A DNA stretch of 64,000 nt from Candidatus Iainarchaeum sp. (lineage in GTDB: Archaea; B1Sed10-29; WALL01; JAGHAM01), in contig JAGHAM010000036.1 in NCBI GenBank assembly GCA_021161465.1, positions 13,512 to 77,511 on the forward strand. The letters are read 5' to 3'. The notes under the pieces were generated by a model that was not told the origin of the DNA, did no database searches, and was given only the letters and a program-made list of their open reading frames with translations. Made by a program: the position numbers and the translations under genes. Shown here piece after piece: positions 7,098-64,000 of the stretch. Numbering within the stretch: position 1 is the first letter of the stretch; every line of letters begins with the position of its first letter.

Positions 7098-7139
7098 ACC
7101 TGGCCACCTCTAACCGTTTTTACATTGTTTTTGGTTTTC

Positions 7140-8225: not shown

Positions 8226-8230
8226 TTAAA

Positions 8231-11751: not shown

Positions 11752-11761
11752 TTCATTCACC

Positions 11762-15324: not shown

Positions 15325-15336
15325 GAAAATTTCCCC

Positions 15337-16368
15337 CTAAAGCACCAATTCCTTGGTCTTGTATTTTACCACTATCTTTTTCTGCGGTATCACCTTGCCT
15401 ATTATCTCAGGACCAAATTCATCGCCAATCATATCAACACATCTCACCGCATCCTCACGATTTACCACTAGGGCAAAACCCCATCCAAGGTTGAATGTCT
15501 TGAACATCTCATCGTCAGCTATACCACCAATCTGCTGTATCAGTTCAAATATGGGCTGTGGATGAAAGTTGTCGAACTCAAACCCGACACCGAGTTTATG
15601 GAATTTCAGGTAAGCATCCCCTGTTATGTGGACAGCTCCTAAGACTTCTATTTCTTTCATGACTTTCATCACTGGTCTAACGTAAATTTTGGTTGGCTTG
15701 AGGACTTCATATATGAGCTCTTTGTCCAATGGCTCTGGCTTCTCAAAAGGGTCATACCTCCCACCCCACTCTTTGAATAAAACTTTCCTGACGAGACTTA
15801 TACCGTTGCTGTGGACACCAGAGCTTTTGAGTCCTATAACAACGTTACCTGGTTTTATCTTTGAGCCATCTACTATTTTCTCCTCTTTAACTTCTCCGAC
15901 GCAATCGCAGTTTATGTGATATTCAGCCTGCATCAGCTCGGGGACGTCAGCAGTCTCCCCACCTATCAATGGACACCCTGCTTCTGATGCCCCACTATTC
16001 AATCCTTTCAACAGTTCCCCAAAAAGCCCAGGCTCGCTTTTCTTTAGGTCGATTACATCTGTTATGGCAAGCGGTTCTGCACCGGAGCGTATGCAGTCAT
16101 TTGCGACCATAGCTACTGCATCTACACCAATAGTGTCGTGCTTCTCAGCAAGCTGGGCAAGCAGGACTTTCGTTCCAACACCATCTGACGTTTTTACCTG
16201 ATACCTACCATCACCAATAGGGTACAGAACGTTGAATGGCGTTTCAACAACAGGACCATACTTGCTGAATGAGTATGTTTCCTTTAACTCAACCAGATGC
16301 TTTTTTGCTTTCTCCCTTAACTTCCTGTCTACACCTGAATCAGAGTATGTTAAAGGCATTTTTCCCAC
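15337..16368 (-). CDS. purM: phosphoribosylformylglycinamidine cyclo-ligase (AIR synthase)
   Basis: SGVDRK..., VGTKVLLA, AIRS N/C domains. Confidence 0.9.
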   Translation of the reverse strand: MGKMPLTYSDSGVDRKLREKAKKHLVELKETYSFSKYGPVVETPFNVLYPIGDGRYQVKTSDGVGTKVLLAQLAEKHDTIGVDAVAMVANDCIRSGAEPLAITDVIDLKKSEPGLFGELLKGLNSGASEAGCPLIGGETADVPELMQAEYHINCDCVGEVKEEKIVDGSKIKPGNVVIGLKSSGVHSNGISLVRKVLFKEWGGRYDPFEKPEPLDKELIYEVLKPTKIYVRPVMKVMKEIEVLGAVHITGDAYLKFHKLGVGFEFDNFHPQPIFELIQQIGGIADDEMFKTFNLGWGFALVVNREDAVRCVDMIGDEFGPEIIGKVIPQKKIVVKYKTKELVL

Positions 16369-17690
16369 TTCCTCACGACTTCACGGGTTTTCTTCCTGGC
16401 AAGCCCTATGTAGTTCTCAGGTTTCATTATCTTGTCTAGCTCTTTTCTGCTTAGGTATTTCATGACAGTTTTATCCTTTGCCAGGACATCTTTCAATGGT
16501 ATGTCTTCCTTTAGGCTTTTCATGCTGGCTTTCCTCAGAAGTTCATGTGCTTCCTGCCTTTCAAGACCTTTAGCCGCTAGCAGGGTGGTTACTGCTTCAG
16601 CCATTATTCTGCCTTTGGTCAAGTCAAGGTTCTCCTTCATCTTCTCTGGGAATACTTGAAGGTTGTTTAGTACTCTTATCATACGGTCGGTCATGTCATC
16701 TAACAGCAGGAAGACTGTTGGGAACACCGAGCGCTCGGCGGCAGAGTTAGTCAAATCCCTCTCATGCTCAAGTGCAATATTCTCCAGGGCCGGCAGGACA
16801 CAGGAACGCACCACACGGGCGTTGCTGCATACGTTCTCACAGTTTATTGGGTTTCTCTTTTGTGGCATGGCTGAGCTACCAACCTGCTCTTTTCCGAACC
16901 CCTCACTTACTTCAGCGATTTCCGTTCGCTGCAGGTTCCTAATCTCCTTCGCGATTTGTTCCAGTGTGCCAGCCATTATTGCCATGTCAGAAACCAACAT
17001 TGCAATGTCCTCTCTTGGAACAACCTGCGTGCTTATTTCTGCTGCATCCAGGTCAAGCCTCTTCATTATTTTCCTCTCTATGCCAGCAACCCCAAACAGT
17101 TTTTGGGCAGCGTAAGTTCCGGTTGCCCCAGAGAATTTCCCCCTAAGGGAGAAGTAGTCACTCAGCAGGTTGTGCAAGTCATATCCAACTTTGTCAACGT
17201 AGTTGGCAAGCTTGAAACCAAAAGTTATTGGTGTCGCATGTTGACCATGGGTCCTACCCACCATCGCCGTGTTTTCATACTTTAGTGACAGGTCCATAAG
17301 CACCCTCATAAGGACTCTCCCTTTCTCCAGGAGGATAGTCAAGCCCTCCTTTAGCTGGAGAGCCAGGGCGGTGTCAACTATGTCATAGCTGGTTGCAGTT
17401 AAGTGAACATATCTTGCGGTTTTAGGTGAGCACTGTTCCGACAGAGCCTTCACCATTGCCATCACATCGTGTTTTGTCTTGCGCTCTATTTCCTTCACCC
17501 GCTCAAGCTTCACATTCTTTGCTTTTACTCTGATTTCCTTGGCAGCTGTTTTTGGTGCTTTTCCCATATCAGCAAGGGCTTCCACCAGCGCGACTTCAAC
17601 ATCCAGCATTCTCTTAAGTCTGGTTTCCTCGTCGAATACCCTTCTCATCTCTTCGGAGCCGTAACGATAGTCTATTGGATGAACACTCAT
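16350..17690 (-). CDS. purB: adenylosuccinate lyase
   Basis: [14 protein letters not shown] start and fumarase/ASL signature [11 protein letters not shown]. Confidence 0.9.
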
Positions 17691-18154
17691 TTTCTCACCT
17701 TCTCGTCAGACTTCTCAACCTTCTCTCGCATCTTCGCGCGATAGTCTTCCAACTTCTCCCTCAGCTCGGGATGCTTTAAAGCCAAGATTTCTACAGCAAG
17801 TAACGCTGCGTTATCGCCTCGATCAACACCAACGGTAGCTACCGGTATCCCTGGCGGCATCTGCATTATTGACAACAATGCGTCCAATCCCTCTAACTTT
17901 GCATTCACAGGGACACCAATTACAGGCTTCGTCGTATGAGCTGCAACTACTCCAGGTAGAGCAGCAGCAAGCCCAGCGATTGCTATAAAAACATTAGCGT
18001 CAGATTCCTTTACAATCTTTTCAAGTTTTTCCGGAGTCCTATGCGCGGACGCCACCCTTATCTCATTTGAAATTTCAAAAGCGTTTAAAACAGAGATGCA
18101 TTTGTCTGCTACGGGTTTGTCCGACTCCGAACCAAGAATAATAAGAACTTTCAT
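17687..18154 (-). CDS. purE: N5-CAIR mutase / AIR carboxylase catalytic subunit
   Basis: [12 protein letters not shown]...ASAHRTP...[13 protein letters not shown] motifs. Start at internal Met. The N-terminal 25 codons of the ORF are treated as spurious. Confidence 0.85.
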
Positions 18155-18303
18155 CAAATCCCCCACAGGTTTTGTTATAGTGCCTAGGGTTTTTATAATT
18201 TTGTTTGTGGTTAGTTGGCATAGTCCCAAAACGAGTGGAAGCGCCTTAGGGCGGTGGAAAACGGGTTTAGTTGATACAACTGACGGGTTAAGGATAAAGG
18301 CAA

Positions 18304-19566
18304 TTAGTGAGGCACTTTTCTTCCCTTTGTTTTGAAACCATGTTTGGATAAGTTCCTCAATCGTTTTATTGGGCAGTAACTATCGCACATTGAACAAGGG
18401 TTTTCATTCGTTAGCCTGTATCTCTCAAGCTTTGATGGGTCTATGGCATACTTGTGTTGTACGCTCCAGTTTAGTTCAGAGCGCGCTTTTGACATACTGT
18501 GGTCCTTGCCTATATCTATACCCCTAGTTATATCAGCAGCGTGGGCAGCTATCTTTGATGCCACCACACCAAGCCTAACGTCATCTTTTCCAGGCAAACC
18601 CATATGCTCTGATGGGGTTACGTAGCAAAGGAAGTCGGCACCATAGAATGCGGCTAAGGCACCGCCAATAGCCCCAACAATGTGGTCGTAGCCGACACCT
18701 ATGTCAGTCACCAGCGGGCCTAAAACATAGAAAGGCGCGCCTGAACACAGTTTTTTCTCAAGTGCAACATTCTTTTCTATACCATCTAATGGTATGTGCC
18801 CCGGCCCTTCCACCATGGTTTGTACACTAGCTTTTCTGGCTCTTTTCACAAGCTTCCCAAGTATTTCAAGCTCTTTCAGCTGTGCTTTGTCAGTTGCATC
18901 GTATATCGCGCCAGGCCTTAGCCCATCACCAAGACTCAATGTGGCGTCATACTTCTTTGCCAACTCTAAAAGATAGTCAAAGTTCTCGTAAAGAGGGTTC
19001 TCCTCGCCAGTTTTTAGTATATACTCTGCTATAAGCCCCCCTCCTCTACTGACAACAGGAATCATCCTCTTATTCCTCTTTAAAACACCAACACTTTCTT
19101 TAGTTACACCACAATGAACCGTTACAAAATCAACGCCATCTTTAAGGTGCCTCTCAACAGCCTTGAAGACACAGTCTTCGCTTATGCTCCTACAGTCATA
19201 GACGGGAACAGTCCCTAACGGGGCTTTAACTGACTTTATCACAGCCTTCCTGGTCTTACGCGCTTTTGAACCAATGCTTAAGTCCATGATTGTATCGGCG
19301 CCATAGGACACTGCCGTTAATGCTTTTTTCACCTCGGTTGCAGTGTTGCTGCGCGTTTCTGAAACGCCAATGTTGGCATTGACTTTCACCCGCAGGCCTT
19401 TCCCCACCCCTACAACAGGGATATCTCTCACTACGTTCTTTAAAACAACAATCCTACCAGCAGCTATTTCCTTCTTTAGGAATTTGCGAGTAACTCCTTC
19501 TTTTTTTGCCAGCTCGTTGACCTCAGGGCTAGTCTGCCCTCTCTTTGCCTCAACCATTTGTAGCAT
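18304..19566 (-). CDS. thiC: phosphomethylpyrimidine synthase
   Basis: ThiC core (NANIGVSE..., YVTPSEH) and C-terminal CxxCxxxxC cluster (CSMCDSYC). Confidence 0.9.
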
Positions 19567-19580
19567 TAGCTCACCCCTAA

Positions 19581-21836
<2,256 letters not shown>

Positions 21837-23100: not shown

Positions 23101-23874
23101 TCACTGTTTCGCGTTTTTGATTGCGTTCTTGAATTTTTGTACAGTTTCCTTAACGTTTTTGTTCCCTTCCATCAGCGTACCTATCTGGATTGCATTAGCT
23201 CCTGCCTTCACTATGTTTTTAGCTTCATCAAGTTTTCTTATTCCACCGCCAACTATGTAGGGAACATCTATGGTCTCTGCCACTGCCTTCACCATCTCAA
23301 TTGGCATTGGCCCCTGTGGGCTTGCCGAGCCGCAATCAGTTAGTATGAACCTGTTTCCCATATACTGGCCAGCCAGGGCGAGGGCAGCGGCTATGTTTGG
23401 TCTCCAGCGTGGGACCAGATTGGCATTTCCAACCCACCCAACGCTTCCACCTGGCTCTATTACTATGTAGCCAGTTGGTAATGGCTCAAGGCCATAACTC
23501 TTTATCACAGGCGCGCTTATGGTCTGGGCTGTGGATAACCAGTAAGGGTCACGCGAGTTGAGCATAGTCATAAAGTAAATGGAGTCTGCATGCTTTGTTA
23601 TGGTTGCAACGTTTCCAGGGAACAGGTTTATCGGCACGTTTACGTTTTCCCGTATAAGCTTGGTTGTTGTGTCAAGTAACTCACCCTGTGCACCTATGCT
23701 ACCCCCAACAAGGATGAGGTCCGCCCCGCCCTCAACACTTTCTTTCGCAACCTGTGCAGCGACATCCGGGCTAGGATGGTCACACGGGTCGATTAAAATC
23801 ATGAGCATGCCTTCTCCCCGTTCTTTGTAGTCACCTATGTAACGCTCCACTTTGCCTGGTTTCATCAAATTCAC
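23101..23874 (-). CDS. geranylgeranylglyceryl phosphate synthase (PcrB/GGGPS family)
   Basis: TIM-barrel GGGPS motifs (LILVGGS, IVGGGIR). Archaeal ether-lipid enzyme. Confidence 0.8.
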   Translation of the reverse strand: MNLMKPGKVERYIGDYKERGEGMLMILIDPCDHPSPDVAAQVAKESVEGGADLILVGGSIGAQGELLDTTTKLIRENVNVPINLFPGNVATITKHADSIYFMTMLNSRDPYWLSTAQTISAPVIKSYGLEPLPTGYIVIEPGGSVGWVGNANLVPRWRPNIAAALALAGQYMGNRFILTDCGSASPQGPMPIEMVKAVAETIDVPYIVGGGIRKLDEAKNIVKAGANAIQIGTLMEGNKNVKETVQKFKNAIKNAKQ

Positions 23875-52560: not shown

Positions 52561-54909
52561 GTGATTAAGTCAGTAGTGCTTGAAAACTGGAAATCCCATG
52601 AGAAGACAGAGCTAGAGTTTACCAGTGGAACGAATGTCTTGATTGGGCAGATGGGTGCAGGAAAGACAAGTGTCATGGATGGCATAACCTTTGCATTGTT
52701 TGGCACCTTTCCAGCGCTTCAGGCCAGAAAACTGAAGCTTGACCAGTGCATAATGGACAAGCCAGAGAAGAAGCAAAAAGCAAAAGTCCAGCTGATTTTC
52801 TCTTTGAACGGAAGCAGCTACGAAATTATCCGGGAAGTTGAGAGAGGCAAGGGGACAACATTTTCTGAGTTCAAAAAGGATGGTACTGTAATAGAAAAGC
52901 CAAACTCTCAGCGTGTGACCGAAGCGATAATCCGTGAGATTCAGGTGGATTACGAACTTTTCTCTCGTGCCGTTTACTCGGAGCAGAACCAGATAGATTA
53001 CTTCCTGCAGATACCAGCTGGCCAGCGCAAGAGGAAGATAGATGAGTTGCTGAAACTGGACAGGCTTGAGAAGGCGAGGTCTGCACTCACCACAGTTGTG
53101 ACGCGATTGAAGACACAGGCAAAGGATAAGGCTAAGGCCATAGAAGATTTTGAGAGGGAAAACATTGCTGAGAAGATTAGGAGCCTCGAGGCTGAGATGA
53201 AGGAGATAGAAGAGAACAAGTCCAAGAACTCCTCAGAGCTTGAAGGCAAGCGCGAGTTGCTTGAGAAAATCTCCACAGAGCTGAAGAGCTTGGAGGAGAA
53301 GGAAAAACGCGTAAGGGATTTGGAGAACCAGCTTAGTTCCATAAAGGGGCAGCTAGGTGAGCTATCTGAGAAGATAGAATCCCTTAAGCACAGGCTTGGC
53401 GACAAGCTGGAGAAAGATTTAAAACATGAAAAAGAGGAGCTCGAAAGGAAGAGCAAAGAGATAACTCTTTCTCTGGAAAAGCTGAACGCCGAGGGATTGC
53501 AGAAGGAGCTTTCCGAGCTGAGCGCGCGTGTTGGCTCGCTTAAAACAACTGTTGAAGAGCTCTCTACCAAAGCTAAGGAGAAGGAAGAGGTTGAAAGAAA
53601 GCTAAGCTTACTGAAAAAAGAGGACTGGAAAAAGAAGCTTGATGATAAAAAAGAAGAACTAAAGCGCCTGGAGGAAAGTTTAACAGGGTTCAAGATTGTG
53701 ATTGAGAACGAGAACAAGCGCATAGGGGAGCTTGAAAAGGCTGGCGATAAATGCCCTGTTTGTGACTCACCAATTTCCAAAACAAAGAAAGAAGAGCTCA
53801 AGAAAAAGTCACTTAATGCTATTGAGTCGGCAAAATCTAGAATAAAAGAGCTGGAAGAGAGAATAAGCAAGATAAGTTTGGATGAGATTGAGGGCAAGAT
53901 TCATGAAACTGAAACACTCTCAAGAAGGCTTGAGGAGCTTGATGTTGCAGGGAAGCTAAAAAAAGCTAAGGAAGAGCTTTTCAAAGCTGAAGCCGAGCTT
54001 GAAAAGAAAAAAGCAGAGCAGGAGAAGGTAGCTGCGGACAGAAAGGAGCTTGAGAAGGAAAAGGAAGAAGTGTTTAAGCGCTTATCAGATGCTGAACGAG
54101 TTGTTGAGCTACAGGGTGAGTACACGGCCGCACGTGAACAAAAAACTAAAAAGTCTGAGGAGCTGTCAGGAATAGAAAAACAGATTGCAGAGATGAAGTT
54201 TGATGAGAACTTGTTGTCGCAAAGGAGGAAAGCTAAGGAAGAGCTGGGGATTGAGGTTAGCAAGCTAGAGGGGTTGGTTGCATCCTTAAAACAGTTGCTT
54301 GAGGAGAAAGGCAAGCGCTTGGATGAGATTAAACTGAAGGAGAAACAAATTGCCCAATGGAAGGAAGATGTGGGATTCCTGAGGAAACAGGCTGGTGCAA
54401 TGGAAGTTTTCAAGAAAGCCCTTGAGGCAACACAAGTCCAGCTTAGGGAAGAGACGCTTTCAGCGTTGAACGTGGGTATGGAAGATATATGGCCTAGGAT
54501 ATACCCATATGGGGACTACACTGGCTTGCGACTGGGCATAGAGGGTGGCGATTACATACTGCAATTGAAGAGGCGGGATGGGAATTGGATAGACGTTGAG
54601 GGCACAGCCAGTGGCGGTGAGCGCTCTGCTGCTTGCCTTGCTTTGAGAATTGCATTTTCCTTGGTGCTAACCCAGAATCTTTCGTGGCTTGTCCTTGATG
54701 AGCCAACCCATAACCTGGATAGTCAGGGTGTGGCAATGTTGTCAAAAGCATTAAGGGAACATCTCCCAGAGTTAGTAGAGCAGGTTTTTATAATAACTCA
54801 CGACGATGAGATGGAATCAGCTGTCAGCGGCGCGCTCTACAGACTTGAAAGGGATAAAGAGCAGGACGAGCCGTCCAGGGCCATACTTGTTAATATGGGA
54901 GCGAAATGA
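52561..54909 (+). CDS. Rad50/SbcC-family SMC-like ABC ATPase with CxxC zinc hook
   Basis: Walker A GQMGAGKTS. Long coiled coils around a CPVCDS hook. Signature ASGGERSAACLAL. D-loop LVLDEPTHNLD. No mre11 nearby. Confidence 0.75.
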   Translation: MIKSVVLENWKSHEKTELEFTSGTNVLIGQMGAGKTSVMDGITFALFGTFPALQARKLKLDQCIMDKPEKKQKAKVQLIFSLNGSSYEIIREVERGKGTTFSEFKKDGTVIEKPNSQRVTEAIIREIQVDYELFSRAVYSEQNQIDYFLQIPAGQRKRKIDELLKLDRLEKARSALTTVVTRLKTQAKDKAKAIEDFERENIAEKIRSLEAEMKEIEENKSKNSSELEGKRELLEKISTELKSLEEKEKRVRDLENQLSSIKGQLGELSEKIESLKHRLGDKLEKDLKHEKEELERKSKEITLSLEKLNAEGLQKELSELSARVGSLKTTVEELSTKAKEKEEVERKLSLLKKEDWKKKLDDKKEELKRLEESLTGFKIVIENENKRIGELEKAGDKCPVCDSPISKTKKEELKKKSLNAIESAKSRIKELEERISKISLDEIEGKIHETETLSRRLEELDVAGKLKKAKEELFKAEAELEKKKAEQEKVAADRKELEKEKEEVFKRLSDAERVVELQGEYTAAREQKTKKSEELSGIEKQIAEMKFDENLLSQRRKAKEELGIEVSKLEGLVASLKQLLEEKGKRLDEIKLKEKQIAQWKEDVGFLRKQAGAMEVFKKALEATQVQLREETLSALNVGMEDIWPRIYPYGDYTGLRLGIEGGDYILQLKRRDGNWIDVEGTASGGERSAACLALRIAFSLVLTQNLSWLVLDEPTHNLDSQGVAMLSKALREHLPELVEQVFIITHDDEMESAVSGALYRLERDKEQDEPSRAILVNMGAK

Positions 54910-55816: not shown

Positions 55817-56440
55817 TTAGTCCTCGATGAGTGGAACAAAGCTGCACGGGAAGTTAAGGTTGGTTTCTTTTAGCTCTTTGTTTCTCTCCACCAGCATAAG
55901 CTCTGCAGACAGTGGATTCCCAACAGGAATTACCATCCTCCCTTTTTCAGCTAGCTGCTCTTCAAGTTGCTTTGGGATTCTGCGCGCTGCACAGCTTACT
56001 ACTATCCTATCAAACGGCGCATACTCATGGAGGCCTTTTGAGCCATCACCCAGTAAGACCTTGACATTGGTATAACCCTTTAGATTGCTTTTAGCCGTTG
56101 CTGCAAGCTCTGGGATTCTCTCTGTGGTGTAAACTCGGCCCTTTTCACCAACTAGGGCTGACAATATTGCCGCCTGGTAGCCAGAGCCTGCCCCGACCTC
56201 AAGCACTTTATTGCCGGATTCTGGTTTAAGCGCTTGCGTCATAACAGCCACCATATGTGGTGCGGAGATAGTCTGGTTTCTGCCTATTGGAAGTGGCGCA
56301 TCGGCGTAAGCCCTATCATGAAATTCTTCTGGAACGAAGAGTTTTCTATCAACTGCTCTCATTGCAGCTTCAACTTGCTTATTTGATAGTAACCCTGTTT
56401 GGACTAAGTGGTCAATTAGTGCGTCATTTGAGTAAGGCAT
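55817..56440 (-). CDS. pcm: protein-L-isoaspartate O-methyltransferase
   Basis: SAM motif VLEVGAGSGYQAA and PIMT pre/post motifs. Start at internal Met MPYSNDAL. The upstream 40 codons look like promoter read-through. Confidence 0.85.
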   Translation of the reverse strand: MPYSNDALIDHLVQTGLLSNKQVEAAMRAVDRKLFVPEEFHDRAYADAPLPIGRNQTISAPHMVAVMTQALKPESGNKVLEVGAGSGYQAAILSALVGEKGRVYTTERIPELAATAKSNLKGYTNVKVLLGDGSKGLHEYAPFDRIVVSCAARRIPKQLEEQLAEKGRMVIPVGNPLSAELMLVERNKELKETNLNFPCSFVPLIED

Positions 56441-56554
56441 GATTATCAAAGGGATTGCCAACAATAAAACAGTAACTCCAAACATGTATGAAAAGTTTAT
56501 ATATATAAAAATATTATATACTAGTGGCGGTACGGTAGCCAGTGGGGGATACAG

Positions 56555-56938
56555 ATGCATGTTAGGATTCCATCAGACGTAAAAAAAGATTTAGAGCCAA
56601 TCAGAAAGGCAGTTGTACCTAAAATAATCCCCCTGTTTTGCTTGGCGCTCATAAACGAGAAGCCCAGATATGGCTATGACATCATCAAGGAAGCCGCGCG
56701 GGTCAAGGACGAGATGGTTGGTCTTCCAATGAAAAAGACATACACCAATGCAGCGGTCATATACCCAACATTGCACAAGCTTGAGAAGGATGGGCTCCTT
56801 GAGTCTAAGTGGGATGAAAGGAGAAAGGTTTACCACATAACCCGCAAAGGCAAGAGAAGGCTTGATATAAGTAGGGGAGTCTGGAAGGCATCGATTGATG
56901 CCCAAATGAAAATGTATAAAAAAATGTTTGAAAGGTGA
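56555..56938 (+). CDS. PadR-family transcriptional regulator
   Basis: Winged helix (KPRYGYDIIKEA...IYPTLHKLEKDGLLES) and C-terminal helix. Confidence 0.8.
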   Translation: MHVRIPSDVKKDLEPIRKAVVPKIIPLFCLALINEKPRYGYDIIKEAARVKDEMVGLPMKKTYTNAAVIYPTLHKLEKDGLLESKWDERRKVYHITRKGKRRLDISRGVWKASIDAQMKMYKKMFER

Positions 56939-58203
56939 TTGATATGAAAAAAATTTTAAGTTTGGTTTTGCCACTATTGCTCCTTACAGGGCTGGTGTTA
57001 GCGGGTGGATATAAGTCTGCTTTACTTTCCCACCCTCTGGATGCGAACACCTACCCAACGGTTGTAAGACCAGGAGATACTGGAGTATACGTAGAAATAC
57101 CAATAACTAACTACTTTAGCTATAGCTATGAGAACATCTCAACCAGGCTAGAGGTCCAAACGCCATTTAAGGGTATAAAAACCCAAAATTTTATACGACG
57201 GATTGGGCCCGGTGAGAGGAAGAGCTTGTTTTACAAGATAGACATTGATTCTAATGCCAATCCAGGGGAATACCTGGTTAACCACTATATGAACTACAGC
57301 TATACAGAATACGATGATGATGGAGACCCACACACATACAATATCACCGTGAAGAAAGTTATAGCGATTACCGTTAGCTATTCGGAAGATATAGAAATAA
57401 CTTCTGTCGGGTTTGACCCAATTGAAATAAAACCCGGTGATGAAACACTACTCAAAGTTAGTGTCAAGAACACAGGAAGCATCCCGGTGAGGGACGTTGA
57501 GGTCTCCTACTCAGGATTTTCTGAAACCTCCACAACAGTTTCAACTGCGGGGGCAGTCTCAGAAACCAAAGTAAACTTTGTCCCGCTTGAGGCAACAAAG
57601 AAGACCATCAGTTCTATCGCGCCCAACGAAACAAAAACTATCACGTTTAAGATGCGCTCTGTCAAAGACACGGCAGTTAAGGCCTACCAGATGCCAGTGA
57701 CTGTTAGCTTCGATGGTGGCACTCTGACAGATAACGCGGTCATAAACGTGATTGGGAAACCAGACATGAGGTTAGCTGGTTTCCAGTCGGACAAAGAGAC
57801 AATAAAACAAGGCCAGTTGTTCTCATTGTCAGTGCAGTTAGAGAATGTAGGGACCGGGAGTGCAAAGTCAGTCAAGGCTGAAATTTTAAATGGGAATGCG
57901 ACAGCTAACCTAACAGGAATAACTACCTCCTACATAGGAACAATAGACCCAGATGATACAGGAACGGCAATATTTTCCCTTGAGGATACGAATCCAGGAA
58001 AGCACAGTGTTGAAGTTAAAGTATCATTTGAAGACGAATATGGCAACACTATGAGCAAGGACTATCAGGTGGAGTACATCATAACGAAAGTGCCACCAGA
58101 CTACAGCGCGGTGATAATAGCTGTGCTAATCGTTCTTGGGATAATATACTTTGTATACAGGAGATACAAGAGGAAAAAGGAACTTGAAGAGCTGGTGAAG
58201 TAA
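56935..58203 (+). CDS. secreted CARDB/Ig-like-domain surface protein with C-terminal TM anchor
   Basis: Signal peptide. Three beta-sandwich repeats (LKVSVKNTGSIPV.., SVQLENVGTGSAKSV..). C-terminal TM plus RRYKRKK. Confidence 0.6.
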   Translation: MIDMKKILSLVLPLLLLTGLVLAGGYKSALLSHPLDANTYPTVVRPGDTGVYVEIPITNYFSYSYENISTRLEVQTPFKGIKTQNFIRRIGPGERKSLFYKIDIDSNANPGEYLVNHYMNYSYTEYDDDGDPHTYNITVKKVIAITVSYSEDIEITSVGFDPIEIKPGDETLLKVSVKNTGSIPVRDVEVSYSGFSETSTTVSTAGAVSETKVNFVPLEATKKTISSIAPNETKTITFKMRSVKDTAVKAYQMPVTVSFDGGTLTDNAVINVIGKPDMRLAGFQSDKETIKQGQLFSLSVQLENVGTGSAKSVKAEILNGNATANLTGITTSYIGTIDPDDTGTAIFSLEDTNPGKHSVEVKVSFEDEYGNTMSKDYQVEYIITKVPPDYSAVIIAVLIVLGIIYFVYRRYKRKKELEELVK

Positions 58204-59343
58204 TTGCTCAAGATAGCCTATGAGAACCTTACAAGAAATAAGGCTCGTACAGCATTGTCAGTTATGGCACTGGTCATAGGCGTAGTTGCTATCATAACTA
58301 TGGTTTCAGTATCGGATGGCATACGCAATTCTATGGTAGAAGCAATTTCTGGTATGAATGGAATCATAGTATGGGAAAAGGATGCCCTTGACCTTCCTTT
58401 CTCATGTCTCCCAATGAGTTACGAGAAGAAGCTAGAGGCGATACCGGGTGTCAAGGTGGTTTTTCCAGAAGTTTATGGACTTGTGAACACTATAGAGGGT
58501 GAGAAACCAAAAGGGGGTTCTATGACGATGGGCATGGCCGTCCTCGCAGGGTTTGACCCGGTCAAGGAACAGCAGAGAGTAGGCAGTATCTATGGTGTTG
58601 AAGTTGAAAAAGGAAGAAACCTACAGCCTGGAGACAAATACGTTGCAGTCATTGGCCACCAACTAGCGGATGAGTACGATAAAAGAGTAGGCTCCATAAT
58701 GAAAGTTAATGGAAAGAGGTTCAAAGTTATAGGCATTCTTGAGGAAAGCCAATATGCGGGCTCAGCAGTTGTCGTACCAATAGACATTGCCAGGGAACTA
58801 GCTGGTTTAGATTCGGATACGGTTAATTCATTTACAGTGCAAACCTACAATCCATCTGACCAGGAGGGGGTGTCAAAAATTATAGAAGCCAGGCTCGATG
58901 ATGTTGATGCTATGAGCACACAAGCCATGCTTAAAGACCTGGAAGAGGTTATGGTGATTTTTGACTGGGCGTTTATCCTATTGTCATCGATATCTCTGTT
59001 GATAGCAGGGATTGGAATAATCAACACCATGCTGATGTCAGTCATGGATAGACAAAAAGAGATTGGCGTATTGAAGGCTGTAGGCTGGTCAAGTGAGGAT
59101 GTGCTGAAGCTGGTGCTTTACGAATCAGCTTTGATAGGAGTGTTTGGTGGTTTGCTAGGGTGCATAGCTGGGGGACTTGTTGTTATCGGAATAGAGAATG
59201 TTGTGGAGTTTGGCCTAACCCTTAGTTGGACTACAATTCTTGGAGCGTTTGCCTTTGCAGTTTTTGCTGGGCTAGTCGGAGGAGTCTACCCTGCATGGAA
59301 GATTAGCAGGATAGACCCAATACAAGCTATAAGAATGGAGTGA
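58204..59343 (+). CDS. ABC transporter permease (FtsX/MacB-like)
   Basis: N-terminal TM, large extracytoplasmic domain, three C-terminal TMs, KAVGWSSEDV motif. Confidence 0.8.
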   Translation: MLKIAYENLTRNKARTALSVMALVIGVVAIITMVSVSDGIRNSMVEAISGMNGIIVWEKDALDLPFSCLPMSYEKKLEAIPGVKVVFPEVYGLVNTIEGEKPKGGSMTMGMAVLAGFDPVKEQQRVGSIYGVEVEKGRNLQPGDKYVAVIGHQLADEYDKRVGSIMKVNGKRFKVIGILEESQYAGSAVVVPIDIARELAGLDSDTVNSFTVQTYNPSDQEGVSKIIEARLDDVDAMSTQAMLKDLEEVMVIFDWAFILLSSISLLIAGIGIINTMLMSVMDRQKEIGVLKAVGWSSEDVLKLVLYESALIGVFGGLLGCIAGGLVVIGIENVVEFGLTLSWTTILGAFAFAVFAGLVGGVYPAWKISRIDPIQAIRME

Positions 59344-59346
59344 AAC

Positions 59347-60486
59347 ATGATAAAATTAGCACTTGAGAACCTGATGAGAAGGAAGTCGAGGACCTTCCTA
59401 GCTATGCTTGGGCTTATCGTTGGAGTCATGACAATAATATCCCTAATTTCTATAACAGAGGGTGTCCGGCTTAAGGTTTCTGAAATTGTGTCTGAGGTCA
59501 AGGGCATCATGGTGGTAGAGGCAAATGTCAGTATGCCAATGCTTTCAAGACTTGATGCTTCTGATGACAATAAAATAAAAGGGATATCTGGGGTTAGTGT
59601 TGTCTGCCCAAGGGTTGTCGGCTCTGTAGTTTTGCTTAAGGAGGGTGAGGAAAGAAAGAGCACGGCTATGCCAACTACAATTTACGGCATATCTCCAGGT
59701 GTAGAAGCCCTAACGAAGAAAGGTCTGTTGCCCTTTGGCGGGCAGCTTGATAAGGGGCGAATGCTGACAAGTGCAGACAAATATTCTGTCATTATAGATG
59801 AGAAAACAGCTGATGACCAGAAAAAGACTGTTGGTTCCAAGATTGAAATAAGGGGCGAGAAGTATAAGGTGGTTGGCATATCACCTGCTATCGGCGGGCA
59901 GGGCAGAACAATAATCTTACCGATAGACCAGGCTAGGAGGATACTTGAAATCAGCAGTGATAAGGTCACAGGGTTTTTTGTTGAGGTTGTTGACCCATCG
60001 CAGGACAAACTCATAGCTAAAAAAATCGAGGCTAAGCTTGGGAACGCTGAAGCAAGAACCACGGAGGAGTTTGCTTCACAGGTTATGGGGATGCTGGCAA
60101 ATGTTAATTCCTTCCTCTGGGTAGTTTCAGCAATAGCAGTTATCATCAGTGCGCTTGGGATAATCAACACTGTGTTGATGTCAGTCAGGGAGAGGACAAA
60201 AGAGTTCGGCATTTTGAAGGCTGTAGGCTGGTCAAGTGGGGACGTGCTAAAGCTGGTAATAGTTGAGTCTTTTCTTATAGGGGTTGGAGGCGGGTTCTTC
60301 GGGATAATTCTTGGGATAGTCCTGGTTTCTATAGCAAGGCCGCTGCTTGGAATACCATTAGCGGTTACCCCTATACTAGCGGTTCAGGCAGCAGTGTTTG
60401 CAATGGTTGTAGGCGCGCTAGGTGGGATTTACCCAGCATGGGAGGCAAGCAAGCTCGACCCAATACAAGCTATATCAAAGGAGTGA
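59347..60486 (+). CDS. ABC transporter permease (FtsX/MacB-like), paralog of the preceding gene
   Basis: Same architecture. KAVGWSSGDV. Confidence 0.8.
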   Translation: MIKLALENLMRRKSRTFLAMLGLIVGVMTIISLISITEGVRLKVSEIVSEVKGIMVVEANVSMPMLSRLDASDDNKIKGISGVSVVCPRVVGSVVLLKEGEERKSTAMPTTIYGISPGVEALTKKGLLPFGGQLDKGRMLTSADKYSVIIDEKTADDQKKTVGSKIEIRGEKYKVVGISPAIGGQGRTIILPIDQARRILEISSDKVTGFFVEVVDPSQDKLIAKKIEAKLGNAEARTTEEFASQVMGMLANVNSFLWVVSAIAVIISALGIINTVLMSVRERTKEFGILKAVGWSSGDVLKLVIVESFLIGVGGGFFGIILGIVLVSIARPLLGIPLAVTPILAVQAAVFAMVVGALGGIYPAWEASKLDPIQAISKE

Positions 60487-60491
60487 CATGT

Positions 60492-61169
60492 ATGAAGACA
60501 CCATTACTTGAAGCGAGAGATGTGTACAGGGAGTATCTACTGGGCAAGACAGTAGTCAAAGCCCTAAGGGGAGTGGATGTCGTTATCCACAAAGGGGATT
60601 TTGTTTTCATAGTTGGACCATCCGGTTCTGGCAAATCAACGCTGATGCACATACTTGGAGCTCTGGACCACCCCACAAAAGGAAGTGTTCTGCTTGATGG
60701 AAAGAACCTTGCAAGGCTGTCTGACTGGCAGCTTTCTATGGTGAGGCGCAACCGTGTTGGGTTTGTTTTCCAAGGCTTCAATCTGGTTCATTCCTTAAAC
60801 GCCAAAGAGAATGTTATGCTGCCGTTGCAAACAAGCGATATAGACAAGGTCACGCTTGAGGCGAGGGCAATAAAGCTGCTTATGGAGGTTGGGCTCAAGC
60901 ATAGGATAAACCACAGGCCAAATGAACTCTCTGGTGGGGAGAGACAAAGGGTAGCAACAGCCAGAGCTTTGATAAATGAGCCAGAGATTATCCTAGCTGA
61001 TGAACCTACAGGAGAGCTGGACTCAAAGACTGGAGCCGAGATAATGGGTCTAATGAGGACTATCAACAAAGAGAAGGGCACAACCTTTGTGATAGTGACG
61101 CACGATACAGAATACATAACTGAGAAAGACAAAGTTTTTAGGATAAGGGATGGGAAGATAATAAGATAG
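60492..61169 (+). CDS. ABC transporter ATP-binding protein (MacB/LolD-like)
   Basis: Walker A GPSGSGKST, signature LSGGERQR, Walker B ILADEPT, H-loop THD. Start at MKTPLL just after the permease stop. Confidence 0.9.
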   Translation: MKTPLLEARDVYREYLLGKTVVKALRGVDVVIHKGDFVFIVGPSGSGKSTLMHILGALDHPTKGSVLLDGKNLARLSDWQLSMVRRNRVGFVFQGFNLVHSLNAKENVMLPLQTSDIDKVTLEARAIKLLMEVGLKHRINHRPNELSGGERQRVATARALINEPEIILADEPTGELDSKTGAEIMGLMRTINKEKGTTFVIVTHDTEYITEKDKVFRIRDGKIIR

Positions 61170-61191
61170 AGCATAATAGAATGGTGAGCGT

Positions 61192-62601
61192 ATGGACGAA
61201 GTTGCTTTACTTAATTCCTTTCTTGGAAGTACAGTAGTTAGGGAGTTATTGCAAAGGATGACCGGTAATTGTGAGGTGTGCGGGAATAGATTGTATAATT
61301 ATCTAAGTAAGTATGCTGGTGAGGAAGTTAATCTTTGCAAGACTTGTGAACTTGGTTATGAAACTTTCTTCAAGGGAGCAATTTTAGCGGCAAAAAAGAA
61401 GTACGGTGTCACTGATGAAGAACTAAGAGAGTTTGTTTCTTATACATTTAACAGAAGAGCAATCTTAAACATAGCTCACGGAGTTATAGACAATGGTCTA
61501 CAAGAACCGCTTGTACCCAGAGCGCCTACTCTGGTAGTTTGGAACGTTACGAAGGCATGTAATCTCCATTGCAAACACTGCTACGAAAACGCTGGAGAAC
61601 CAATGCCTGATGAGCTTACAACTGAAGAAGCTACGGATCTTATCGATAAGATGAGTAACTTTGGTGTTGCTACAATCGCTTTTTCTGGTGGAGAACCACT
61701 ACTAAGAAAAGATTTAACCAAGTTGGTAGAGCGAGCTAGTAGTCATGGTATGTTCGTTTCAATTGCCACCAATGGAACGCTTTTGAGTCTCAAGAAAGCC
61801 CAAGAGCTGAAAAAAGCAGGAGTGGGTTATGTTGAAATTAGCATAGATTCTCCATACGAGGAGGCACATGATGAGTTTAGGGGGGTTCCTGGTTCTTGGA
61901 GACGGGCTTGGAAAGGTTTGGAAAATGCACGTAAGGCTGGCATGACTAACGGTATAGCCTATACTGTAACGAAGAAAAGTGTAGGTGATGCACAAACGAT
62001 GATTAAAATGGCTTTAGGAAAAGTCGATACTTTAATGTTCTTTAACTTTGTCCCAACAGGCAGAGCTATTGATAAAGAGGAATTAGATCTCTCTCCAGAA
62101 GAGCGAGAGGCATTTCTCAGGCAGGTTTACGAACAATTCGAGAAATATCAGGGAAAGATAATGATATCTTCAACCGCCCCCCAGTTGGGCAGGGTTTGCG
62201 TGCAAGAAAGGGGACCTGGTATGATGCATCTTATAGCTGTGAAAGAGAAGGCAAAGCAACTGGTGAGGCTCATTGGAGGATGTGGTGCTGGAAGGCTTTA
62301 TTGTGCTTTGGAACCCAATGGGGATGTGAAACCGTGTGTTTTCTTACCCATAGTGGTTGGGAATGTGAGAGAAAAACCATTCGATAGGATCTGGTCAGAA
62401 AACCCAATCCTACTTGCCTTAAGAGATAAGAATCTCTTGGAGGGAAGTTGTGGTTCTTGTGAGTATAAGACAGTGTGCGGGGGATGTAGATCCAGGGCTT
62501 ATGCCTTAACTCAAAATTATCTGGGTGGCGATCCTGGTTGTATTTACTATAAGAGATGGACGAGGAAATCAACAGCTGCTACTCAGAAGCAACCCGTTTG
62601 A
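61192..62601 (+). CDS. radical SAM/SPASM-domain enzyme with about 110 aa Cys-containing N-terminal extension
   Basis: CNLHCKHC radical SAM cluster. GGEPLL. C-terminal SPASM Cys pattern (CGAG..C.....C..C, C.SC...C.GGC). N-terminal CEVCGN...CKTC. Confidence 0.8.
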   Translation: MDEVALLNSFLGSTVVRELLQRMTGNCEVCGNRLYNYLSKYAGEEVNLCKTCELGYETFFKGAILAAKKKYGVTDEELREFVSYTFNRRAILNIAHGVIDNGLQEPLVPRAPTLVVWNVTKACNLHCKHCYENAGEPMPDELTTEEATDLIDKMSNFGVATIAFSGGEPLLRKDLTKLVERASSHGMFVSIATNGTLLSLKKAQELKKAGVGYVEISIDSPYEEAHDEFRGVPGSWRRAWKGLENARKAGMTNGIAYTVTKKSVGDAQTMIKMALGKVDTLMFFNFVPTGRAIDKEELDLSPEEREAFLRQVYEQFEKYQGKIMISSTAPQLGRVCVQERGPGMMHLIAVKEKAKQLVRLIGGCGAGRLYCALEPNGDVKPCVFLPIVVGNVREKPFDRIWSENPILLALRDKNLLEGSCGSCEYKTVCGGCRSRAYALTQNYLGGDPGCIYYKRWTRKSTAATQKQPV

Positions 62602-62911
62602 TAAACGTTTTCCCTTCCTTTAAGAGTTCCTTACCTTTTTTTGTTATACTGTAGTATCTCCTTATCCTCCCATTGACTTCTTTTTCTGATGAGGTTACAA
62701 AACCCCTGGTTTCTAGGGGGTATAACACCCTGTACGAGATTATCCTGCTTACCTTCAATCCAAACCGCTTGCTTAGCTCTTCTTGTATGGCATATGCATA
62801 CATTGGCTTCTCATTGAGCAGATACAGTATATGTATCCAAAGGCATTCAACACCCAGCTTTCTTTTCAGTCTGTCCAGCTCGGGTGAGCCAGTTGGAGAG
62901 AAGTCTACCAT
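62579..62911 (-). CDS. PadR-family transcriptional regulator
   Basis: KPMYAYAIQEELSKRFG...YPLETRGFV winged helix. Confidence 0.75.
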   Translation of the reverse strand: MVDFSPTGSPELDRLKRKLGVECLWIHILYLLNEKPMYAYAIQEELSKRFGLKVSRIISYRVLYPLETRGFVTSSEKEVNGRIRRYYSITKKGKELLKEGKTFIKRVASE

Positions 62912-62974
62912 GCTATATTTAACAACCGTTAAATATATAAAATTAGCGCGTGATAATTCATGTGGTGGTTGTAA

Positions 62975-64000
62975 ATGTCCAAAATTAGGGTAGCTATTTC
63001 AGGTATAGGCAACTGCGCCAGCTCTCTTATTCAGGGAAGGTATTACTACAAGGATGTTAGCTCAAATGACGAGCTGGTACCCGGTCTTATGCACAATGTC
63101 TTTGGCGGTTATAAGATAGATGATATAGAGTTCGTGGCTGCCTTCGATATTGATAAGAGAAAAGTTGGTAAGGACCTGAGTGAGGCGATTTTTGCTAAGC
63201 CAAACTGCACCAAAACAGTATACAAGGACATCCCGAAACAAAATGTTATCGTTAAGAAGGGCCCGGTCCTCGATGGGTTCCCTGACCATATGTTGGAATA
63301 CCCTGAGGACAAGAGGTTCATGACTGACGATACGCCACCAGTAGACGTTGTAAAAGAACTGAAAAAGTCAAAGGCGGATATGCTTGTTAACTACATGCCA
63401 GTTGGCAGCCAGAAGGCCACAGAGTTTTATGCTCAAGCTGCCCTTGATGCCGGTATTGCCTTCGTCAATTGTATGCCTGTGTTCATAGCATCTGACCCAG
63501 AGGGCAAATGGCCTAAGAAGTTCGAAGAGGCAGGCTTGCCTGTGGTTGGGGATGATATAAAATCCCAAATAGGGGCAACGATTGTTCATAGGGTGCTTAC
63601 AAAGTTGTTCAATGACAGAGGAGTCAAGTTGGATAAGACCTACCAGCTGAATGTTGGTGGGAACACAGACTTTATGAATCTTATAGAGCACTCCAGGGGA
63701 AAAACAAAGAAGATAAGCAAGACAGAGTCTGTCCAGTCGCAGTTGCCTGTGCCTATGGCGCCGGATACAATCCACATAGGACCATCTGATTACGTGCCTT
63801 GGCTTAAGGACAACAAGCTTTGTTTCCTCAGGATGGAGGGTAGAAAGTTTGGGGACATACCCGTTGAGCTGGAGCTAAGGCTTAGTGTTGAGGATTCGCC
63901 TAATAGTGCGGGGTGTGTTATAGACGCTATACGTGCCTGCAAAATAGCTCTCGATAGGAAAGTCAGTGGCCCACTGATATCTATGTCATCCTATATAATG
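62975..64000 (+). CDS. ino1: myo-inositol-1-phosphate synthase (Ino1 family), 3' end outside window
   Basis: MSKIRVAISGIGNCASSLIQGRYYY matches the bacterial/archaeal MIPS N-terminus. ORF is open to the window end. Missing from the ORF track. Confidence 0.8.
   Translation, partial: MSKIRVAISGIGNCASSLIQGRYYYKDVSSNDELVPGLMHNVFGGYKIDDIEFVAAFDIDKRKVGKDLSEAIFAKPNCTKTVYKDIPKQNVIVKKGPVLDGFPDHMLEYPEDKRFMTDDTPPVDVVKELKKSKADMLVNYMPVGSQKATEFYAQAALDAGIAFVNCMPVFIASDPEGKWPKKFEEAGLPVVGDDIKSQIGATIVHRVLTKLFNDRGVKLDKTYQLNVGGNTDFMNLIEHSRGKTKKISKTESVQSQLPVPMAPDTIHIGPSDYVPWLKDNKLCFLRMEGRKFGDIPVELELRLSVEDSPNSAGCVIDAIRACKIALDRKVSGPLISMSSYIM

Follow-up and report, generated by a model that had tools for sequence, protein, structure and literature searches.

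A Gms-family radical SAM protein encoded beside a PadR-flanked MacB-type transporter module in a DPANN-labelled archaeon

In a 64-kb stretch of DNA (hereafter the window) from a genome labelled DPANN (Diapherotrites), a radical SAM/SPASM gene directly follows the genes of an ABC transporter, and the question is whether the two form one system. A preliminary description of the sequence had proposed that seven genes act as one unit, with a maturase coupled to an exporter. We recovered all seven open reading frames at the positions and with the domains described (Table 1). Two gene starts were corrected by comparison with the genes called on contig L085, which is 99.7 % identical: the CARDB protein starts at 56944 (419 aa), with a GTG at 56935 as an alternative start, and the ATPase at 60492 (225 aa), so that it does not overlap the second permease gene. 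Gaps between genes inside the block are 0-22 bp, and the reported gap of 22 bp between the ATPase gene and the radical SAM gene (gms) was confirmed at 61170-61191. The second PadR gene faces gms (or the ABC gene) in convergent orientation, overlaps gms by 23 nt and is divergent from the gene for myo-inositol-1-phosphate synthase (MIPS).

Table 1. Genes, domains and motifs of the locus, in window coordinates
Feature	Position	Strand	Evidence or remark
PadR1 regulator, first gene of transporter module	56555..56938	+	Pfam PadR 60.6 bits
CARDB/NPCBM_assoc surface protein gene	56944..58203	+	Pfam NPCBM_assoc 35.1 bits, CARDB 31.4 bits
MacB-type permease 1 (MacB_PCD + FtsX)	58204..59343	+	Pfam MacB_PCD 94.7, FtsX 75.4 bits
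MacB-type permease 2 (MacB_PCD + FtsX)	59347..60486	+	Pfam MacB_PCD 85.4, FtsX 74.5 bits
ABC ATPase, LolD/MacB/FtsE type	60492..61169	+	ABC_tran 110.6 bits
gms homolog, radical SAM/SPASM, 469 aa	61192..62601	+	Radical_SAM 112.5 bits, SPASM 35.5 bits
Gms N-terminal extension, residues 1-110, six-helix domain	61192..61521	+	AF2 model; aligns across family (alignment A1)
C27xxC30-x18-C49xxC52 motif, putative structural metal site	61270..61347	+	read from translation
CX3CX2C radical-SAM cluster motif (C123, C127, C130)	61558..61581	+	invariant columns, alignment A1
SPASM region, C364, C382, C420, C423, C429, C432, C450	62281..62541	+	seven invariant Cys, alignment A1
PadR2 regulator	62579..62911	-	Pfam PadR 53.6 bits
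Palindrome ATATTTAAC-N4-GTTAAATAT, candidate operator/promoter	62915..62936	.	overlaps TATA-like box, PadR2-MIPS interval
MIPS gene, continuing past window end	62975..64000	+	full gene on L085: Inos-1-P_synth match

The radical SAM protein is 100 % identical to NCBI accession MCD6414958.1, which Li et al. 2024 (PMC11186832) include among the Gms homologs of their source data. In their BLASTP table it has 40.92 % identity (E 1e-93, 469 aa) to METOK_RS04425, the Gms of M. okinawensis that was validated in vivo and in vitro, and by these values it passes the cut-offs of that study (E<1e-50, >30 % identity, >420 aa; PMC11186832). An alternative published cut-off is E<1e-80 to Tg-Gms with at least 400 aa. 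Validation of the T. celer enzyme comes from Garcia et al. 2024 (PMC11214058), and further Gms proteins are those of T. guaymasensis (WP_062369926.1) and P. furiosus (AAL80771.1) (PMC11186832, PMC11214058). Experimentally, members of this family are lipid cross-linkers that convert GDGT to GMGT (PMC11186832, PMC11214058), and their isofunctional SSN cluster is mega-1-1-24 of RadicalSAM.org at an alignment score of 90 (PMC11186832).

The architecture of the protein agrees with this listing. [quoted passage not shown] Ahead of the AhbD-matching region lies an extension of about 110 aa for which no Pfam or NCBIfam profile gave a match. In the AF2 model (pLDDT 85.1) it forms six helices (residues 3-12, 14-24, 33-41, 50-71, 75-82 and 85-101), and profile coverage and alignment A1 also indicate the ~100-aa N-extension of Gms. 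This extension (COG4001) is known to have six helices in Gms and to be missing in AhbD (PMC11186832, PMC11214058). The extra N-terminal domain noticed earlier thus exists but is not novel, being the diagnostic extension of Gms and common to thousands of homologs that align over the full length (coverage of at least about 95 %). Homologs were found in Bathyarchaeia, Thermoprotei, Archaeoglobi, Methanomicrobia, Thermoplasmata, Methanomethylicia, Hadarchaeota, Aerophobetes and Acidobacteria, which matches the published distribution of Gms and therefore supports the family assignment. Their most frequent neighbour, at 14 loci, was a B12-binding radical SAM gene (Gmm-like), and clustering of gms with gmm has been published (PMC11214058). 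Judged by accession listing, architecture and homolog distribution, the radical SAM protein of the window is a Gms-family (GMGT synthase, membrane-lipid cross-linker) protein.

Whether gms belongs to the transporter block was addressed by synteny. Two related genomes (L087 and L088/L089) show the order Rad50, PadR, CARDB, FtsX, FtsX, ABC, convergent PadR and MIPS, followed by a CDP-OH transferase, PHP, a second CDP-OH transferase and DHODH, and in neither block is there a radical SAM gene at the site. Their CARDB proteins are 52-56 % identical to the window protein and belong to the same cassette. Both PadR genes said to bracket the cassette are real and are kept in these two relatives, PadR1 in the same position and PadR2 although gms is missing; PadR1 is missing from the more distant CARDB loci L090 and L092. 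The gene order of the window was kept only in one further locus (L004, radical SAM protein 79 % identical) and in the two ~99 %-identical contigs (L085/L086). The relatives lacking the radical SAM gene indicate that the transporter module is independent and conserved and that gms occupies its 3' end in a lineage-specific manner, and the claim of a single seven-gene unit had to be given up on the same grounds.

We consider it likely that two separate neighbours meet at this locus, namely a self-contained transporter module and gms, which would belong functionally with membrane-lipid genes and not with peptide maturation. The module would consist of PadR1, the CARDB/NPCBM_assoc protein, two MacB-type permeases, the LolD/MacB-type ATPase and the convergent PadR2. 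Its surface protein combines an N-terminal signal-like segment and CARDB/NPCBM_assoc beta-sandwich domains with a basic-tailed TM helix at the C-terminus. The MacB-like arrangement of CARDB, two FtsX and ABC genes had been named correctly and represents a MacB-type (type VII) ABC system at superfamily level only, as the LolC/E, MacB and LolD equivalog profiles all stayed under cut-off: permease 1 matched the LolC/E and MacB profiles weakly, and the best NCBIfam profile of the ATPase was LolD with 257.6 bits under a cut-off of 307.75. By analogy to type VII ABC systems, ATP hydrolysis would most likely move the large extracytoplasmic permease domains and thereby expel or extract an envelope-associated substrate. 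Both regulators belong to the PadR wHTH family, their scores (60.6 and 53.6 bits) lying above the Pfam gathering score of 27, and the module is probably PadR-repressed. The palindrome between PadR2 and MIPS has its core kept in L087 and L088; the window contains one copy of it, and as a pattern it lacks significance. For gms, the CX3CX2C-bound [4Fe-4S] cluster and SAM would yield a 5'-deoxyadenosyl radical, as shown for validated members, and the six-helix N-domain would supply the hydrophobic lipid pocket.

The genes around the locus also point to membrane lipids. On L085 the full MIPS gene matches the inositol-3-phosphate synthase profile with 480 bits, and it heads an inositol-phospholipid head-group cluster directly downstream. 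Two CDP-alcohol phosphatidyltransferases after MIPS have archaetidylinositol-phosphate synthase as best match (67 and 107 bits, under the 180-bit cut-off), and a GGGP synthase is encoded 38 kb upstream (23101-23874) with a score above its cut-off. The window further encodes an NrdG-type anaerobic activase, which fits the restriction of Gms to anaerobes, the only organisms from which it has been reported (PMC11186832). Against the Gms reading, neither tes, whose product supplies the GDGT substrate, nor gmm was seen in the window and an 8.6-kb extension (~73 kb), and DPANN archaea, to which the genome is assigned by its label, are commonly regarded as dependent on lipids of a host.

The 22-bp gap contains an SD-like GGTGA, and transcripts of the transporter operon therefore probably extend into gms. 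This tight spacing could mean that gms shares regulation or function with the transporter, and so could two distant gms loci (L042 and L065) that likewise abut CARDB/FtsX/ABC cassettes. Taken further, gms and the CARDB/MacB-type ABC genes might form one envelope-remodelling operon here and in a few lineages, in which the transporter would for example act on lipids that span the membrane, or on a lipid-anchored component of the surface whose environment Gms stiffens. The gap is too short for a separate promoter, lipid head-group genes lie next door, and the 1.12 Mb that flank 83 other gms loci contain only two FtsX/CARDB cassettes, both of them directly abutting gms (L042, a Thaumarchaeota-labelled MAG, and L065, a Thermoproteota-labelled MAG), where roughly 0.1-0.25 such adjacencies would be expected by chance. 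However, this estimate is a rough, post hoc statistic on two cases whose gms/CARDB/FtsX/ABC gene orders differ, no FtsX/MacB cassette flanks the gene at 81 loci of the initial set of 84 homolog loci (L001-L084), and the nearest syntenic relatives have the cassette without gms at the site. We know of no MacB-type system that transports tetraether lipids, and we regard such a coupling as unlikely. PadR genes adjoin gms in several lineages.

A second possibility concerns the reaction itself. With ~41 % identity to a validated enzyme, substrate or product of the window protein could differ, and it might be a paralogue within the Gms family that acts on other chains or on scavenged host lipids, with a cysteine-containing N-domain as mark of the subtype. 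The N-domain contains the motif CxxC-x18-CxxC (the spacer had been given as x17, and translation gives x18), which is probably a structural Zn/Fe site. The tetraether-forming enzyme GDGT-MAS is reported to carry an extra four-Cys (rubredoxin-like) metal site as well. Of 83 family members, 25 (about 30 %) carry the motif and 58 do not, and several rows of alignment A1 are also without it, so the N-domain exists in Cys-containing and Cys-free forms. It is not discussed in Li et al. 2024 (PMC11186832) or Garcia et al. 2024 (PMC11214058). A different reaction would also be consistent with the missing tes in the ~73 kb examined and with bacterial homologs, which are presumed to use non-isoprenoid membrane-spanning lipids (PMC11214058). 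Against it, the Archaeoglobus homologs (L001, L007 and L052) have the same four-Cys form, and Archaeoglobus species are GMGT producers with Gms (PMC11214058). Proteins identified with validated Gms also diverge from each other as much as from the window protein. We equate accession ASI98480.1 with the validated Tc-Gms of Garcia et al. This T. celer protein has only 37.6 % identity (3e-83) to the same M. okinawensis query (PMC11186832), and a deviating reaction of the window protein appears improbable to us.

A broader and equally doubtful scenario would be that a few unrelated archaeal lineages (the DPANN-labelled one of the window, L042 and L065) recruited gms beside a CARDB/MacB-type ABC system for envelope remodelling, and that the four cysteines form an undescribed fourth metal centre. 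The transporter might then flip membrane-spanning lipids or a lipid-anchored surface protein, or move them into or out of the membrane, with the PadR proteins sensing membrane stress, and the putative additional centre, whose cysteines occur in about 30 % of Gms, might be analogous to the rubredoxin-like iron of tetraether synthase.

That the protein is instead a housekeeping tetrapyrrole enzyme of AhbD/NirJ type (heme b or heme d1) is very improbable. Its best NCBIfam profiles are indeed AhbD (287.9 bits) and NirJ2 (282 bits), which match residues 114-452, but both scores lie far under the equivalog cut-offs of 500 bits, and AhbD heme b synthase (TIGR04545) was rejected on this basis. The N-extension is the very feature that divides Gms from AhbD (PMC11214058), the SSN of Li et al. 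2024 sets Gms homologs apart from AhbC/AhbD, with 413 of 441 homologs retained (PMC11186832), and no other Ahb genes were found in the neighbourhood.

The proposal of the preliminary description, that the radical SAM protein matures a peptide or the CARDB protein, the MacB-type ABC exports it and the PadRs regulate the whole, is to be dismissed as extremely unlikely, for although many SPASM enzymes are RiPP maturases, the nearest solved structures by fold are PqqE, SkfB, SuiB and anSME, and gms starts just behind the ATPase gene, all ORFs of at least 20 aa in the block lie inside or antisense to called genes with no free-standing small ORF in or around it (in line with the earlier remark that no precursor gene was obvious), no PqqD/RRE-type Pfam match was found at E<=0.01, the N-domain is all-helical and Gms-like, the family cross-links lipids in experiments (PMC11186832, PMC11214058), homologs most commonly neighbour lipid-type radical SAM, DUF362 and glycosyltransferase genes, and linkage of maturase and exporter fails in L087, L088 and the 81 cassette-free loci. 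That description had itself named two findings that would speak against it, clustering of the enzyme with a housekeeping family (for example AhbD or anSME) and lack of a conserved ABC adjacency. On both counts the evidence goes against it, as the enzyme falls in the characterised, non-peptide Gms family and the ABC adjacency is not conserved. Its envelope theme holds loosely, since Gms acts on membrane lipids, while peptide modification and export do not.

The literature on GMGTs (H-shaped tetraethers) already covers the enzyme family and its N-terminal domain and even contains accession MCD6414958.1, and the annotation 'radical SAM protein' can be changed to Gms homolog. The locus shows a DPANN-labelled, apparently anaerobic archaeon with its own genes for GGGPS ether-lipid, inositol head-group and tetraether cross-linking functions, and is relevant to the making versus scavenging of lipids in such organisms and to the sources of GMGT biomarkers. 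Modest leads are the recurrent adjacency of gms and MacB cassettes, the several lineages with a PadR gene beside gms, and a four-Cys site that only part of the family carries.

Compared with known systems, the window protein resembles Gms in its AhbD-like core with CX3CX2C, SPASM domain with full Cys complement, six-helix N-extension of ~100-110 aa and length of ~470 aa, as well as in the phyletic spread of its homologs and its apparently anaerobic host. It differs in that its gene has no gmm neighbour and sits behind an ABC transporter operon, and in the N-domain CxxC-x18-CxxC missing in about 70 % of the family. With AhbD/NirJ2 it shares the fold class and the best-scoring curated HMMs, whereas AhbD has no N-extension and a tetrapyrrole gene context is missing here. 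Tes/GDGT-MAS (MJ0619, PDB 7TOL/7TOM) likewise forms lipid C-C bonds by radical SAM chemistry and has a SPASM-type domain, but with 54.6 bits over the RS core only (114-296), a TM of ~0.39 and N-domains that cannot be aligned it is a different family. The transporter is like MacB/LolCDE in the MacB_PCD extracytoplasmic and FtsX 4-TM domains of its permeases, and like LolC/LolE/LolD in having two different permease genes and one LolD-like ATPase. Unlike these it has equivalog scores under cut-off throughout, is paired with a membrane-anchored CARDB/NPCBM_assoc surface protein and is found in an archaeal host without Lol pathway or membrane-fusion partner. PadR repressors beside transporter genes are known, for example LmrR-LmrCD of Lactococcus. 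The module is similar to this type in the small PadR wHTH proteins that flank the transporter operon and in the conserved palindrome over a promoter-like element by PadR2, and differs from it in the orientation of one PadR gene, which converges on the operon and diverges from a lipid gene.

All seven genes named in the preliminary description were confirmed by the ORF list and by Pfam and NCBIfam scans (see table). They are tightly packed, with gaps of 0-22 bp, and the gap between the ABC ATPase gene and the radical SAM gene is indeed 22 bp long and holds a Shine-Dalgarno-like GGTGA. A precursor peptide gene had not been obvious in this block, and a small-ORF scan likewise found no intergenic small ORF: every ORF of at least 20 aa lay within a called gene or antisense to one, which together with the short gaps leaves no room for such a gene. 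Scans for tRNAs and Rfam families gave none in the window. A protein-L-isoaspartate methyltransferase gene divergently adjoins the start of the CARDB cassette, as do its counterparts (L090 3595-4224 and L092 4258-4887) in distant relatives that have a 28 % identical CARDB protein and no PadR1. At the start of a Rad50-like gene, the window differs by a small indel or rearrangement from the otherwise 99.7 % identical contig L085 (1673-1684), on which this gene is called as two pieces.

Features of the block and of its surroundings (window positions unless stated otherwise)
Feature	Position	Strand	Basis or remark
PadR regulator (PadR1)	56555-56938	+	ORF list, Pfam/NCBIfam
NPCBM_assoc/CARDB protein	56935/56944-58203	+	ORF list, Pfam/NCBIfam; start 56944 by L085 gene calls; signal-like N-terminus, C-terminal TM anchor
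MacB_PCD+FtsX permease 1	58204-59343	+	ORF list, Pfam/NCBIfam
MacB_PCD+FtsX permease 2	59347-60486	+	ORF list, Pfam/NCBIfam
ABC ATPase	60492-61169	+	ORF list, Pfam/NCBIfam; start by L085 gene calls
Radical_SAM+SPASM protein (gms)	61192-62601	+	ORF list, Pfam/NCBIfam; 469 aa
Four-Cys motif of the radical SAM protein	61270-61347
PadR regulator (PadR2), convergent	62579-62911	-	ORF list, Pfam/NCBIfam
Palindrome	62915-62936
Inositol-phospholipid head-group cluster	62975-64000; L085 11784-14774		directly after PadR2; on L085 past the window end
Protein-L-isoaspartate methyltransferase	55817-56560	-
Indel/rearrangement, Rad50-like gene start	52822-52870
ORF, 239 aa	30952-31671	-
ORF, 572 aa	29237-30955	-	Cys-rich signal-like N-terminus
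GGGP synthase	23101-23874	-
Purine biosynthesis run	5541-20834	-

The best curated HMMs for the radical SAM protein were AhbD (287.9 bits) and NirJ2 (282 bits), covering residues 114-452 only. An identity as AhbD or NirJ was rejected given scores far below the 500-bit cut-offs and the N-terminal extension. The tetraether synthase Tes (GDGT-MAS) was considered because it carries an extra four-Cys metal site; it was also rejected, as the match to 7TOL (54.6 bits) was confined to the RS core, the N-domains failed to align and the Foldseek TM score was about 0.39. Among solved structures, sequence search and PDB Foldseek retrieved generic rSAM-SPASM enzymes only. A protein search showed that the radical SAM protein is identical to MCD6414958.1 from a MAG named 'Candidatus Diapherotrites archaeon', and that full-length homologs of about 470 aa are abundant (about 95 % coverage or more, 40-45 % identity) in Archaeoglobi, Methanomicrobia, Thermoplasmatota, Thermoprotei, Aenigmarchaeota, Asgard archaea and some bacteria.

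The GMGT synthase Gms was identified by Garcia et al. 2024 (PMC11214058), who describe a homolog of AhbD with 100 additional N-terminal residues (COG4001); AhbD lacks this extension, which forms a hydrophobic pocket for the lipid. For Gms of M. okinawensis, validation in vivo and in vitro came from Li et al. 2024 (PMC11186832). The enzyme as they describe it comprises an N-terminal domain of six helices, an RS domain, a bridging region and a SPASM domain, and has three [4Fe-4S] clusters. The source data of the latter study list MCD6414958.1 (469 aa) among the DPANN matches of the validated Gms with an E value of 1e-93 and 40.92 % identity, this being the value of the published table, and the protein passes the homolog criteria used there; it was not found in the bioRxiv supplement. 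That table gives a lower similarity to the query (37.6 %, 3e-83) for the T. celer protein ASI98480.1, in our reading the Tc-Gms that Garcia et al. validated; this places the window protein within the range of sequences that proven enzymes cover. In our AF2 model (pLDDT 85.1, pTM 0.87), residues 3-101 form exactly six helices, and the RS barrel and SPASM region come after them. The best 80 genomic loci of the family match the published Gms phyletic pattern (PMC11214058), with many Bathyarchaeia, then Thermoprotei, Archaeoglobi, Methanomicrobia, Methanomethylicia, Hadarchaeota, Aerophobetes and Acidobacteria. Judged by its sequence, the radical SAM protein is an already catalogued Gms homolog.

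The N-terminal extension had been presented as a novel Cys domain. Its approximately 110 residues align across the family, and together with the six modelled helices this identifies it as the known N-domain of Gms. The cysteines follow the pattern C27xxC30-x18-C49xxC52, which corrects the spacer of 17 residues given before. Within the family this motif is optional, being present in 25 of 83 members and missing in 58. The form CxxC-x17-21-CxxC occurs in Archaeoglobi, many Bathyarchaeia, Methanocorpusculum and the window protein, and N-domains without it are found for example in L048, in L069 (Methanococci) and in Korarchaeum and Thermoplasma relatives. Since the main texts of the two Gms papers (PMC11214058, PMC11186832) do not mention it, the four-Cys motif appears to be a small detail undescribed in those texts.

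Homologs of the CARDB protein led us to two related genomes, one represented by a 1.17-Mb contig (L087) and the other by L088/L089. Both share a conserved block of Rad50, two small membrane proteins, PadR, CARDB, two FtsX permeases and ABC ATPase, continuing with a convergent PadR, inositol-1-phosphate synthase, a CDP-alcohol transferase, a PHP hydrolase, a second CDP-alcohol transferase and then dihydroorotate dehydrogenase genes. In both genomes the second PadR gene follows the ATPase gene with no radical SAM gene in between. Transporter and both PadR genes are thus conserved as a module independent of gms, and the view of a single seven-gene unit does not hold; gms is either a lineage-specific gain at the 3' end of the module or was lost in the relatives. 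Further distant CARDB loci comprised two contigs stopping just past the CARDB gene (L090, L092) and one locus without a cassette (L091). The arrangement of the window is common only to a 79 %-identical relative (L004) and two approximately 99 %-identical contigs (L085, L086). When 84 loci of gms homologs were screened by tblastn and iterated HMM searches, FtsX/CARDB cassettes were found in three (L004, L042, L065). The adjacency of gms to the ABC genes, on which the preliminary description had let its reading depend, is thus not conserved, and the ABC cassette stands as a conserved module of its own.

Clustering of neighbours across the 84 loci showed that the gene most often found immediately beside gms encodes a B12-binding, Gmm-like radical SAM protein (14 loci, e.g. 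L048 8119-9738, L049 11262-12803, L066 1626-2849 and L005 4242-5708), which confirms the published gms-gmm clustering (PMC11214058). Next in frequency were DUF362 proteins and glycosyltransferases, in Bathyarchaeia. No B12-binding radical SAM gene adjoins gms in the window. In three unrelated archaeal MAGs gms is followed directly by a PadR gene on the same strand, less than 50 bp away (L013 11428-11781, L022 1822-2163, L059 11412-11750), and four of the seven PadR ORFs detected in all loci and the window touch gms. Archaeoglobi (L001, L007, L052) instead carry a small TrmB-like wHTH gene divergently upstream of gms.

Outside the window arrangement, the 1.12 Mb of flanking sequence yielded only two more cassettes (L042, L065). 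Each of them lies directly against gms, where chance would give about 0.1-0.25 such adjacencies by a rough, post hoc estimate on small numbers. In these distant gms loci (L042 9580-15580, L065 9971-16047) NPCBM_assoc/CARDB, FtsX and ABC genes occur in differing orders, and in L042 an ORF of 107 aa without annotation separates gms from the ABC gene, at the position that PadR2 has in the window. We consider a real functional coupling of gms and cassette quite improbable. A literature search for PadR together with FtsX in archaea found nothing pertinent.

L085, which continues past the window end, shows a lipid head-group cluster that is transcribed away from PadR2. This cluster encodes an inositol-3-phosphate synthase (480 bits) and a pair of CDP-alcohol phosphatidyltransferases with best matches to archaetidylinositol-phosphate synthase (67 and 107 bits; cut-off 180); the PHP-family hydrolase encoded between them could supply the missing phosphatase. 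L087 and L088 have the cluster too, there with an added HAD hydrolase. Between PadR2 and the synthase gene the palindrome ATATTTAAC-N4-GTTAAATAT overlaps a TATA-like box and is kept in both relatives (L087 ~14590-14615, L088 ~6280-6305), hence in three lineages including the window. It is a candidate PadR operator/promoter. A role as a repeated operator was rejected: the window has a single copy, and the pattern is not significant.

GGGP synthase scored 281.6 bits against a curated cut-off of 247, so that this DPANN-labelled archaeon encodes the first committed step of ether lipid synthesis and may produce its own ether lipids. Gms is reported to be restricted to anaerobes (PMC11186832), with which the NrdG-type anaerobic activase encoded in the window is consistent. 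The purine run contains PurH-type AICARFT/IMPCHase, PurP-like DUF1246/DUF1297, PurL, adenylosuccinate lyase and synthetase, with ThiC embedded, and pyrimidine genes follow downstream of the window on L085. Despite the DPANN label, the purine cluster and ThiC speak against an extremely reduced metabolism, and with the pyrimidine genes the anabolic repertoire is fuller than the 'Diapherotrites' label would predict. The adjoining ORFs of 572 and 239 aa had no NCBIfam match at E<=1e-5 and are possible secreted or surface proteins.

As shown for the Gms family, the CX3CX2C cluster of the window protein would cleave SAM to a 5'-deoxyadenosyl radical, which would take a hydrogen from a GDGT biphytanyl chain held in the N-domain pocket, and the two auxiliary SPASM clusters would assist formation of the C-C bond to a second chain, yielding GMGT. 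The neighbouring genes probably encode a PadR-controlled mechanotransmission ABC system of the MacB type that works with a surface beta-sandwich protein, and gms of this lineage probably shares a transcript with them. A RiPP-type peptide modification system is not borne out. The remaining leads are the adjacency of gms and cassette in L042 and L065, PadR genes beside gms, and the optional four-Cys site. The gene list is real, yet it is accounted for by known families and in this sense already known.
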